Source of the DNA: Escherichia coli
GTDB lineage: Bacteria > Pseudomonadota > Gammaproteobacteria > Enterobacterales > Enterobacteriaceae
DNA: 64,000 nucleotides
Assembly: GCF_045037415.1 (NCBI RefSeq)
Contig: NZ_CP173438.1
Direction: 5' to 3' (one strand)
Every line of letters starts with the position of its first letter. Within the stretch, counting starts at the first letter, position 1. The position numbers and the translations under genes are program-made. Of the stretch, positions 52,209 through 54,978 are shown one piece after another. Under the pieces are notes generated by a model. That model was not told where the DNA came from, did not search any database, and saw only the letters and a list, made by a program, of their open reading frames with translations.

Positions 52209-53558
52209 TTAGATAGCCCAGCCACCCGCATAGAAGGTCACCAGCGCCACGGCAATAACGACCGTACCGATGTTCAACTTGCGCCATTCGCCGGAAACCA
52301 GACGACCAATCACCAGAGTCGCGAAGCCAATCATGATGCCTGTTACGATGTTACAGGTCAGCACGATGAATACCGCCGTAACCAGACCCGCCATCGCATC
52401 AACAAAATCAGCAAAGTCGATTTTCGCCACGTTGCTCAGCATCAGCAGGCCAACGTACATCAGCGCCGGAGCCGTTGCGTACCCCGGAACGAGGTAAGAG
52501 AGCGGAGAGAGGAACAGAATCAGCAGGAACAGCACGCCAACGGTGATAGCCGTCAAACCGGTTTTACCGCCCGCCGCCGTACCCGCCGCAGACTCGATGT
52601 ATACCGCTGCCGGAGCTGCACCCACCAGGCCAGAAAAAACGCTGCTCATGGAGTCGGTGGTCAGTGCTTTCCCGCCGTCGATGATCTGCCCATCTTTATC
52701 CAGCAGGTTCGCCTGACCGGCGACGGCACGGATAGTTCCGGTGGCATCAAATACTGCCGTCATCACCAGTGCCAGAACACTTGGCAGGACTACAGGATTC
52801 AGCGCGCCCATAATGTCCAGGCTGCCTATCAGTGAATTGCCGTTTTCATCGCTCAATGAAGGCATGGCGAAAACGCCGGAGAAATGGACGTTAGGATCGA
52901 AGATCAAACCGACAATTGAGATACCGATAATGGTCAGCAGAATGCCGCCAGGGACTTTCAGTTTTTCCAGGCCGATAATCACTGCCAGCCCCACCAACGA
53001 CATCATCACCGGAAAGGTCGTAAAATCCCCCAGCGCGACGGGCAGACCATCAAGCGGGTTTTTAATCACCAGACCGACACCATTAGCGGCAATGAGCAGC
53101 AGGAACAGACCGATACCAATCCCCGTGCCGTGCGCCACACCGTGCGGCAAGTTGCGCAAAATCCAGCTACGGATACCCGTGGCAGAAATTACCGTAAACA
53201 GCACACCCATCAGGAACACGGCACCCAGCGCGACAGGTACGCTAATATGTTGCCCCAGCACCAGACTGAATGCGGTAAACGCCGTCAGAGAGATGGCGCA
53301 ACCAATCGCCAACGGCAGATTAGCCCACAGACCCATCACGATAGAACCGAGTCCGGCAACCAGACAGGTTGCAACGAAAACTGCCGCAGGCGGGAAGCCC
53401 GCTTTACCCAACATGCCTGGAACGACGATAACCGAGTAGACCATCGCCAGAAACGTTGTTAACCCGGCAACCACTTCCTGACGGACAGTGCTTCCACGTT
53501 GTGAAATTTTAAACCAGGCGTCGAGTGAACCGCCGGTACGCGCTGATGGCGTAGACAT
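52209..53558 (-). CDS. ghxP: GhxP (YjcD), guanine/hypoxanthine permease, NCS2 family (449 aa)
   Basis: NCS2/AzgA-like translation [41 protein letters not shown]... Confidence 0.92.
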
Positions 53559-54080
53559 AAGAAAACATCCCCTGAGAGTTTAATTTTCGTCAAGATGCGT
53601 GGCGGACAATCCCCTGCCAGCGAAACGTTATCTTCCTGCTCCAGGTTTGCGACAATTTGCTGCGTCGCAAAAAAAGCAAACGTTTAGCTCCGCGCATACA
53701 AAACGGGTGGTAAAAAAAGCAAACGATTATCCGGCGATCATAGCGGCTTTTTCAACCGAAGTTTGCTGCTTTTTTCTCTTTTATTGTCTTGACGATGAAA
53801 AACCAGGCAATTGATGCGCAAACGTTATCGTCGATGCGCAAGATTGCAGCGTTATCGAGCCGTATACCGTTCAGGATTGCGATAAAAAATCGTCTGAGAT
53901 GACAAAAATATTGCGGCTAAAAAGTGTACTTTTACACTGGCGAAGAAACGCCGGTAACATACAATTAAAGCATCAACACCAACCGGAACCTCCACCACGT
54001 GCTCGAATGAGGTGTGTTGACGTCGGGGGAAACCCTCCTGTGTACCAGCGGGATAGAGAGAAAGACAAAGACCGGAAAAC

Positions 54081-54111
54081 AAACTAAAGCGCCCTTGTGG
54101 CGCTTTAGTTT
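54081..54111. terminator. Hairpin at the 3' end of soxR
   Basis: AAACTAAAGCGCC-cttgt-GGCGCTTTAGTTT 13-bp stem overlapping the soxR stop codon. Confidence 0.6.
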
Positions 54112-54569
54112 TGTTCATCTTCCAGTAAGCGTGCGCCGGTACCTTCTTCTCCTAAGCGGTCGCCCGGGTTACGCAACGGGCAATCACTGCGCGAAAGGCA
54201 GCCACAACCAATACATCCATCCAGTTCGTCACGCAGCGCCACTAAGGTATGAATGCGCCGATCCAACTCTTCTCGCCATTGGGACGAAAGCTGTTTCCAC
54301 TCTTTCGCACTTAACGTATGCCCTTCTGGCAACACGCCAAACGCTTCACGAATGGTTGCGAGCGGAATGCCAATACGCTGAGCAATTTTGATAATTGCGA
54401 CATATCGCAACACATCACGTTTATATCGCCGCTGATTGCCGCTATTACGGATACTGGTAATCAACCCTTTGCTTTCATAGAAATGCAGCGCCGATACCGC
54501 CACACCGCTGCGTTTCGCCACTTCGCCGGGTGTTAGCAGCGCTTTAATGCGGGGTAATTTCTTTTCCAT
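54105..54569 (-). CDS. soxR: SoxR, MerR-family redox-sensing [2Fe-2S] transcriptional activator (154 aa)
   Basis: C-terminal [12 protein letters not shown] cluster motif; N-terminal MerR HTH. Confidence 0.96.
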
Positions 54570-54654: not shown

Positions 54655-54978
54655 ATGTCCCATCAGAAAATTATTCAGGATCTTATCGCATGGATTGACG
54701 AGCATATTGACCAGCCGCTTAACATTGATGTCGTCGCAAAAAAATCTGGCTATTCAAAGTGGTACTTGCAACGGATGTTCCGCACGGTGACGCATCAGAC
54801 GCTTGGCGATTACATTCGCCAGCGCCGTCTGTTACTGGCCGCCGTTGAGTTGCGCACCACCGAGCGTCCGATTTTTGATATCGCAATGGACCTGGGTTAT
54901 GTCTCTCAGCAGACCTTCTCCCGCGTTTTCCGTCGGCAGTTTGATCGCACTCCCAGCGATTATCGCCACCGCCTGTAG
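54655..54978 (+). CDS. soxS: SoxS, AraC-family superoxide-response activator (107 aa)
   Basis: Translation MSHQKIIQDLIAWIDEHIDQPLNIDVVAKKSGYSKWYLQRMF... Confidence 0.96.
   Translation: MSHQKIIQDLIAWIDEHIDQPLNIDVVAKKSGYSKWYLQRMFRTVTHQTLGDYIRQRRLLLAAVELRTTERPIFDIAMDLGYVSQQTFSRVFRRQFDRTPSDYRHRL

Follow-up and report, generated by a model that had tools for sequence, protein, structure and literature searches.

The gene ghxP (yjcD) lies on the minus strand at positions 52209-53558 of a 64-kb Escherichia coli window (the whole stretch of DNA analyzed here), as indicated by the list of open reading frames (ORFs) and the RefSeq annotation of an identical locus. Upstream of it are soxR (54105-54569, minus strand; ORF list, named per RefSeq annotation) and soxS (54655-54978, plus strand; ORF list). 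The soxR-ghxP spacer extends from 53559 to 54104 and measures 546 bp, the size given in a preliminary description of this DNA; it is present in 5420 of 5426 complete E. coli genomes, with a median of one copy per genome. Sequences of motifs, boxes and leader are given on the ghxP (minus) strand unless stated otherwise.

On its plus strand, the spacer harbors the small RNA sraL/ryjA, which had been considered impossible to delimit from sequence alone and which Rfam family RF01408 places at 53972-54112 by a full-length match (153.3 bits, E = 2e-36, gathering score 39). It is convergent with soxR and does not overlap the motif cluster described below; the K-12 annotation lists ryjA at 4277926-4278066. 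A promoter-like site for the small RNA, TTTACA-18 bp-TAACAT, is found at 53931-53960 (plus strand), and its terminator hairpin (54081-54111) overlaps the final codons of soxR; this single palindrome may terminate both transcripts.

Four similar elements and a related inverted copy were identified between ghxP and sraL/ryjA: element 1, GCGAAACGTTATC (53620-53632); element 2, GCAAACGTTTAGC (53676-53688); element 3, GCAAACGATTATC (53719-53731); element 4, GCGCAAACGTTATCGT (53816-53831); and the inverted copy GTTTGCTGC (53761-53769). A direct sequence check bore out the coordinates of all five as originally described, as well as the A7 tracts ahead of two motifs, which are elements 2 and 3. The whole set had been proposed to represent PurR-type operators. 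A PurR log-odds matrix was built from 27 of the 28 ChIP-chip motifs in Table 1 of Cho 2011 (PMC3159470), leaving out the yjcD site, and used to rank ~128,000 positions on both strands of the window. Element 2 ranked first (19.4 bits) and element 4 second (18.55 bits), far above background, followed by element 3 at rank 9 (10.56 bits) and element 1 at rank 22 (7.24 bits). Among 356,699 background positions flanking 80 related loci, 28 reached at least 10 bits, two at least 12 bits and none 16 bits; three matches of at least 10 bits in the spacer thus compare with ~0.05 expected. Elements 4, 3 and 2 are hereafter termed box A (ACGATAACGTTTGCGC, 53816-53831), box B (GGATAATCGTTTGCTT, 53717-53732) and box C (AGCTAAACGTTTGCTT, 53674-53689), all on the minus strand. 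Boxes A and C fall within the range of the training sites (12.1-25.4 bits) and have the central CpG. Box B is borderline, scoring 10.56 bits in E. coli and reaching 13.9 bits in other species, near the 10.1 bits of the second site of purR, and element 1 lies outside that range.

The comparison of 80 loci, each from a different Enterobacteriaceae species, revealed strong conservation of the three boxes. Box A was found in 80/80 species (13.5-19.3 bits), box B in 79/80 (10.4-13.9 bits) and box C in 80/80 (12.1-21.6 bits), always in one shared orientation. The distance between boxes A and B is 99 bp in 80/80 loci with both boxes, and the 83 nt separating them comprise 77 distinct sequences with 63% mean pairwise identity and at least 172 substitutions, with no indel. 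By comparison, boxes B and C lie 42-156 bp apart, with 16 different values, and box C is located 113-190 bp from the ATG. The rigid 99-bp spacing hints, at the level of sequence, at a geometric requirement; with 10.5 bp per turn it amounts to 9.4 turns, so that the two boxes are not obviously in phase. The divergent bacterium ESL0689 keeps A and B 99 bp apart and has no box C, while Erwinia typographi keeps B and C and has no box A. As either C or A may be absent, the boxes behave as modules, of which only A and B are spatially locked.

Several further observations were made on these loci. Klebsiella, Raoultella, Kluyvera and others (13 loci) contain 35-110 extra bases between B and C and have much longer leaders. 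The closest homologue in Serratia fonticola is located behind an amidohydrolase gene and has no boxes; it is probably not an orthologue. A 2.9-kb contig labelled 'MAG: Bacillota bacterium' encodes a ghxP protein 100% identical to the query and carries the same three boxes, and is probably mis-binned or contaminating.

Next to box A, the octamer TTGCGCAT (53834-53841, minus strand) recurs 20 bp farther downstream, within the box. Its column block is >95% conserved in 79 sequences and scores below 9 bits, so it is no full PurR box; judged by its sequence, it looks like a half-site. On the plus strand, direct repeats occur at 53813-53857, with GATGCGCAA at 53813 and 53833, and CGTTATCG at 53823 and 53850. 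Their arrangement suggests a duplication of box A with an 8-bp filler, the second copy being unconserved outside Escherichia.

Box B overlies part of the core promoter of ghxP, namely its -10 hexamer, together with the start site. In the promoter scan, the ghxP strand shows a single sigma-70-like site, made up of the -35 hexamer TTGAAA (53750-53755; 10 of 12 matches over the promoter) and the -10 hexamer GATAAT (53726-53731; also evident from the alignment). The -35 block GTTGAAAA is near-invariant (at least 95% across 79 aligned sequences), and the TTGAAA-GATAAT spacer measures 18 bp in 80/80 sequences carrying box B. Every column of the CGTTTGC that follows the -10 hexamer within box B is likewise at least 95% conserved, an invariance that would be demanded by the strong PurR half-site rather than by the promoter. 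The E. coli score of box B (10.6 bits) lies below the weakest training site (12.1 bits), and its conservation is partly due to the -10 hexamer; judging from the second site of purR (10.1 bits), a site of ~10 bits can plausibly work. The inverted copy, GCAGCAAAC on the minus strand (53761-53769), belongs to a conserved A-rich block that lies close ahead of the -35 hexamer, the position of an UP element. It is conserved as AAAGC.GCAAA in the alignment and yields no PurR matrix match of at least 9 bits, its sequence resembling a single half-site only.

The start of ghxP transcription could be mapped from published SMRT-Cappable-seq data (Yan 2018, PMC6131387, Supplementary Data 1), which report full-length transcripts at NC_000913.3 4278317-4279876 containing b4064 only, with 86 start-site reads on the M9 sheet and 52 on the second sheet. 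Position 4278317 is a T four bases after GATAAT and, via the K-12 locus, corresponds to 53721, or to 53720 if the table is 0-based, placing the start at 53720-53721 (minus strand) with an uncertainty of 1-2 nt. This agrees with the invariant TTGAAA-18 bp-GATAAT promoter and, with the K-12 ghxP ATG at 4278479, defines a leader of ~162 nt. The supplements of Kim 2012 and Adams 2021 had no ghxP start-site entry. Relative to this start, box A lies at about -110 to -95 (center ~-103), box B at about -11 to +5, box C at about +33 to +48 and element 1 at about +90 to +103. The motifs had all been assigned to a long ghxP leader; only elements 1 and 2 are in fact transcribed, element 3 covering the -10 region and start, and element 4 being located ~100 bp upstream of the promoter. 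The start itself falls within box B and not downstream of all motifs. A second promoter beside box A was considered and rejected, as the scan gave no match and no conserved -10-like hexamer was seen in the aligned sequences. UTP-sensitive reiterative transcription of the codBA, upp or pyrBI type was also dismissed: the T7 run starting at ~+4 in E. coli is gone in most genera.

PurR control of ghxP is already known, and there are earlier reports or predictions for each of box A, box C and element 1, so that the PurR idea of the preliminary description is preceded by Cho 2011 and Elmas 2015. Element 4, which had been singled out for its resemblance to the PurR operator, is base-for-base the ChIP-chip motif 'ryjA/yjcD' of Cho 2011 (ACGATAACGTTTGCGC, 4,276,230-4,276,245; PMC3159470). 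The corresponding PurR-bound region (4,275,855-4,276,485) was enriched 2.08 with adenine and not called without adenine (PMC3159470). It equals approximately 53576-54206 of the window and spans all motifs, so region-level occupancy cannot separate the boxes. The same box A site was found again in the supplement of Sastry 2019, where ghxP is placed in the PurR-1 i-modulon. Purine repression of ghxP through PurR, suspected from the outset, is likewise borne out by the literature (Kozmin 2013, Rodionova 2021), in which the gene is repressed by adenine or HAP. In Elmas 2015, 33 genes of whose predicted regulon have binding sites in common with RegPrecise, box C is listed as a PurR site at -130 (Additional file 3) and element 1 is proposed as a new, extra PurR site at -76 (AAGATAACGTTTCGCT, score 7.6). 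When the exact box sequences were sought in the searched literature texts, only box A was matched (Cho 2011), and box B was not found there.

Element 1 differs from the boxes in what is conserved. It corresponds to GATAACGTTTCGCT on the minus strand (53619-53632). In 66 of 72 leaders it matches the complement of AGYTAAACGT, the left half of box C, at 9-10 of the 10 positions. An alignment of 48 leaders from different genera and species (A1), starting 15 nt ahead of box C and ending at the ATG, was examined for RNA structure. RNAalifold finds two helices, an outer helix P1 and a hairpin P3, and, together with pair counts on the 48 leaders, delineates a domain P1-P4 at 53595-53697 (minus strand). 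P1 is formed by 53697-53690 with 53602-53595 (GUAUGCGCGG pairing with CCACGCAU) and shows double changes in 5/7 pairs (e.g., AU 32, CG 8, UA 4). P3 (53669-53664 with 53653-53648) shows them in 6/6 pairs. P2 (53689-53680 with 53628-53619) joins the left half of box C to element 1 as its 3' strand; it is 91.5% paired and contains one covarying pair (15/90: UA 21, CG 17, UG 7, other 3) among columns that are mostly invariant. P4 (53613-53610 with 53606-53603; GUGGA/UCCAC) displays single-sided changes only, and P2 and P4 rest mainly on conservation.

The four-helix model as a whole leaves 93.5% of the cells paired, compared with 33-48% once the partners are shifted by 1-3 columns. Double changes are present in 12 of 27 pairs, and 0/500 shuffles reach the observed values. 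The leader thus displays compensatory changes beyond controls, as expected of a conserved structured cis-acting leader RNA. A covariance model built from it (R1) has one match in the 64-kb window, at 53560-53701 (138 bits), and matches six held-out loci (73-105 bits), with 20-60-nt insertions within the P2 internal loop. The E. coli leader alone folds no better than shuffled sequence (z = -0.24), and the structure is visible only by comparison across species. A cmscan of 53300-54400 against Rfam 15 (E <= 1) returned only sraL, with no leader family and no purine riboswitch (RF00167), and the literature searched contains no paper tying yjcD/ghxP to a leader structure. RNA pairing with element 2 accounts better for element 1 than a role as a PurR box. 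The core AAACGTTT is its own reverse complement, and the strand that pairs with box C consequently resembles a further copy of the motif, which would be the fourth 'repeat'.

Around this domain, some additional features deserve mention. The T run after box C (53669-53675) counts seven residues here and six in K-12; it is the sole indel among six spacer differences from K-12 and sits in the P2-P3 linker. The Shine-Dalgarno sequence AGGGGA (53568-53573, minus strand; alignment A1) lies inside a nearly invariant 19-nt block ahead of the ATG (53556-53558), UCUCAGGGGAUGUUUUCU (53560-53578), and an inner sequence, ACAGGGAGAUG (53631-53645), is found in most genera; both presumably resemble CsrA-type GGA sites. 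The P3 loop (53654-53663) reads CCCCU in most genera and is complementary to the AGGGG of the Shine-Dalgarno sequence; in E. coli (this strain and K-12) it reads CAGCAA, whereas CCCC persists in E. albertii and in a divergent E. coli. An anti-Shine-Dalgarno function of this loop is plausible in most genera and was rejected here, as E. coli has CAGC. Likewise rejected were a terminator or attenuator on the ghxP strand, since the sole terminator-like site in 53450-54200 is the plus-strand one of sraL/soxR and the U run after box C lies ahead of hairpin P3 instead of behind it, and a leader peptide, since the 35-codon ORF at 53590-53697 is frameshifted in K-12 (T6/T7) and the Enterobacter sequence has no ATG (GTAAGCG).

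Taken together, we consider it rather probable that the ghxP control region combines three PurR operators with a folded leader in which element 1 is the second strand of P2. Control would be exerted in two layers, DNA operators and leader RNA; the boxes that PurR would occupy, the division of labor among them and the role of the RNA domain are all read here from sequence. In each operator a weak half would precede the strong half CGTTTGC, all three sharing one orientation. PurR loaded with hypoxanthine or guanine would occupy all three boxes, of which A and C are strong and B is weak. At box B it would keep RNA polymerase off the -10/+1 region, and at box C it would form a roadblock to polymerases that have escaped, as reported for purB and purR, where PurR blocks elongation (Cho 2011, PMC3159470). 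Box A, 99 bp from B, might help to fill the weak box B or act in a fixed promoter geometry, a role suggested by the spacing. PurR is a dimer and is not known to tetramerize, so looping between A and B would be without precedent for PurR. The ~162-nt leader would fold as P1-P4, with the RNA copy of box C's left half pairing with element 1 to form P2. As a guess, the RNA might control translation or mRNA stability; we lean to this because the domain ends ~35 nt ahead of the nearly invariant Shine-Dalgarno block.

A more far-reaching version, in which the leader domain (about +25 to +127) is an undescribed Enterobacteriaceae regulatory RNA responding to a ligand, protein or small RNA and A and B form a phased PurR pair, is put forward only tentatively, and we think it unlikely as a whole. 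If true, it would add a second layer of purine-linked control, with the DNA of box C being read twice, as operator and as helix strand, and the 99-bp A-B pair would imply cooperation or looping of PurR dimers, undescribed for PurR.

Boxes B and C could instead be kept for other reasons, B as the -10 region and C as a strand of P2, with an incidental or vestigial likeness to PurR sites, leaving box A as the sole working operator. Box B does overlap GATAAT, the RNA model pairs the left half of box C, whose conservation may serve this pairing rather than PurR, and Cho 2011 and Sastry 2019 each list box A alone; MEME/FIMO as run in Cho 2011, however, gives one motif per region. It is moreover the strong half, the most PurR-specific part, that is near-invariant as CGTTTGC after the -10 hexamer, where a promoter needs no fixed sequence, and GTTTGCTT of box C is unpaired in the RNA model yet nearly invariant. 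Box C also outscores box A, with no site of at least 16 bits in the 357 kb of background, and Erwinia retains B and C without A. We regard a single working operator at box A as doubtful.

Conversely, all four elements could be PurR operators, element 1 being a low-affinity site near the start codon. Its rank (22 of ~128,000 window positions at 7.2 bits), the site predicted in Elmas 2015 and the Citrobacter versions of the element, which reach 9.8-9.9 bits, are compatible with this. Across 72 leaders, however, the element 1 segment never reaches 10 bits with the PurR matrix, its best score being at most 9.9 bits, with a median of -3.5 bits, and the element is without the strong half TTGC on either strand. 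What is conserved instead is complementarity to the left half of box C, maintained through a switch from C-G to U-A with G-U intermediates. A fourth operator is hence improbable in our judgment. Of the original proposal that every motif is PurR-type, elements 2, 3 and 4 stand and element 1 does not. The four-copy architecture, flagged as unusual at the time, survives as a real multi-site layout of three boxes, element 1 being no conserved box.

It is very improbable that the repeats are sites of another regulator of the LacI family or beyond (Cra, CytR or an unknown one) instead of PurR. The conserved half-site TTGCGCAT beside box A is left unaccounted for by PurR boxes and would fit such a regulator. 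In contrast, the fit to the PurR matrix is that of validated sites, and the Cra consensus TGAAWCGWTTCA, which had been named as an alternative, had no match with up to three mismatches in 53559-54104, its window-wide matches being below chance. PurR also occupies the region in vivo (Cho 2011). That the repeats are chance matches or functionless remains of local duplication, as the recurrence of the short repeats GATGCGCAA and CGTTATCG near box A might suggest, deserves next to no credence and is refuted by conservation, the three boxes keeping sequence and orientation across 80 species while their flanks diverge and outnumbering by far the matches of at least 10 bits expected in the spacer.

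PurR control of ghxP is in itself ordinary and of textbook level; what goes beyond prior knowledge is the rigid three-operator layout and the conserved structured leader, the latter not described in the literature searched. New conserved leader structures are rare in E. coli, and the ghxP leader is a testable candidate for post-transcriptional control of purine salvage. Element 1 further illustrates how motif scans may be led astray by an operator core that is palindromic: published as an 'extra PurR site', it is more likely an RNA pairing partner.

With the purine riboswitch of Firmicutes (RF00167), the ghxP leader shares a conserved multi-helix junction ahead of a purine base transporter. 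Unlike the riboswitch, it is built of a P1 surrounding a long P2, which contains an inner hairpin, and of P4, and it has no Rfam match at E <= 1; no ligand, terminator or Shine-Dalgarno-sequestering helix was identified, and one helix strand doubles as a DNA operator. A second parallel is the gal repressosome, in which GalR binds O_E and O_I, ~113 bp apart, and forms a loop with HU. Both systems have a dimer of the LacI/GalR family and two operators ~100 bp apart flanking a promoter, and spacing matters in gal. The gal loop depends on HU, whereas looping at ghxP is suggested by the fixed spacing only.

Within the PurR regulon, the operators of purF, purL and purMN resemble the ghxP boxes as 16-bp imperfect palindromes with a central CpG and hypoxanthine or guanine as co-repressors. 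Those over the core promoter resemble box B, and 44% of PurR motifs lie between -35 and -10 (Cho 2011, PMC3159470). These promoters are described with one operator, whereas at ghxP the promoter-proximal site is the weakest of three.

The closest counterpart is purR itself, which in K-12 has a 22.7-bit box in its leader and a 10.1-bit box 88 bp downstream in the coding region. We take these to be its two autoregulatory operators; purR autoregulation reportedly involves two PurR operators downstream of the promoter, and the binding of PurR to them is reported to be non-cooperative. As at ghxP, a strong and a weak box act on one promoter, 88 bp apart vs 99 bp for A and B (18.6 and 10.6 bits), and downstream boxes serve as roadblocks (Cho 2011 text). 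The two layouts differ in that both purR sites lie downstream of the start, whereas the three ghxP boxes are placed upstream, over -10/+1 and in the leader. In K-12 xanP, a 19.1-bit box at -68 is followed 98 bp downstream, within the gene, by one of 11.9 bits, and adeP has 20.2- and 12.5-bit boxes 32 bp apart. The pairs at purR (88 bp), xanP (98 bp) and ghxP (99 bp) suggest a general and overlooked feature of PurR action, weak auxiliary sites at a set distance, and a strong-plus-weak PurR pair ~90-100 bp apart may be a recurring layout.
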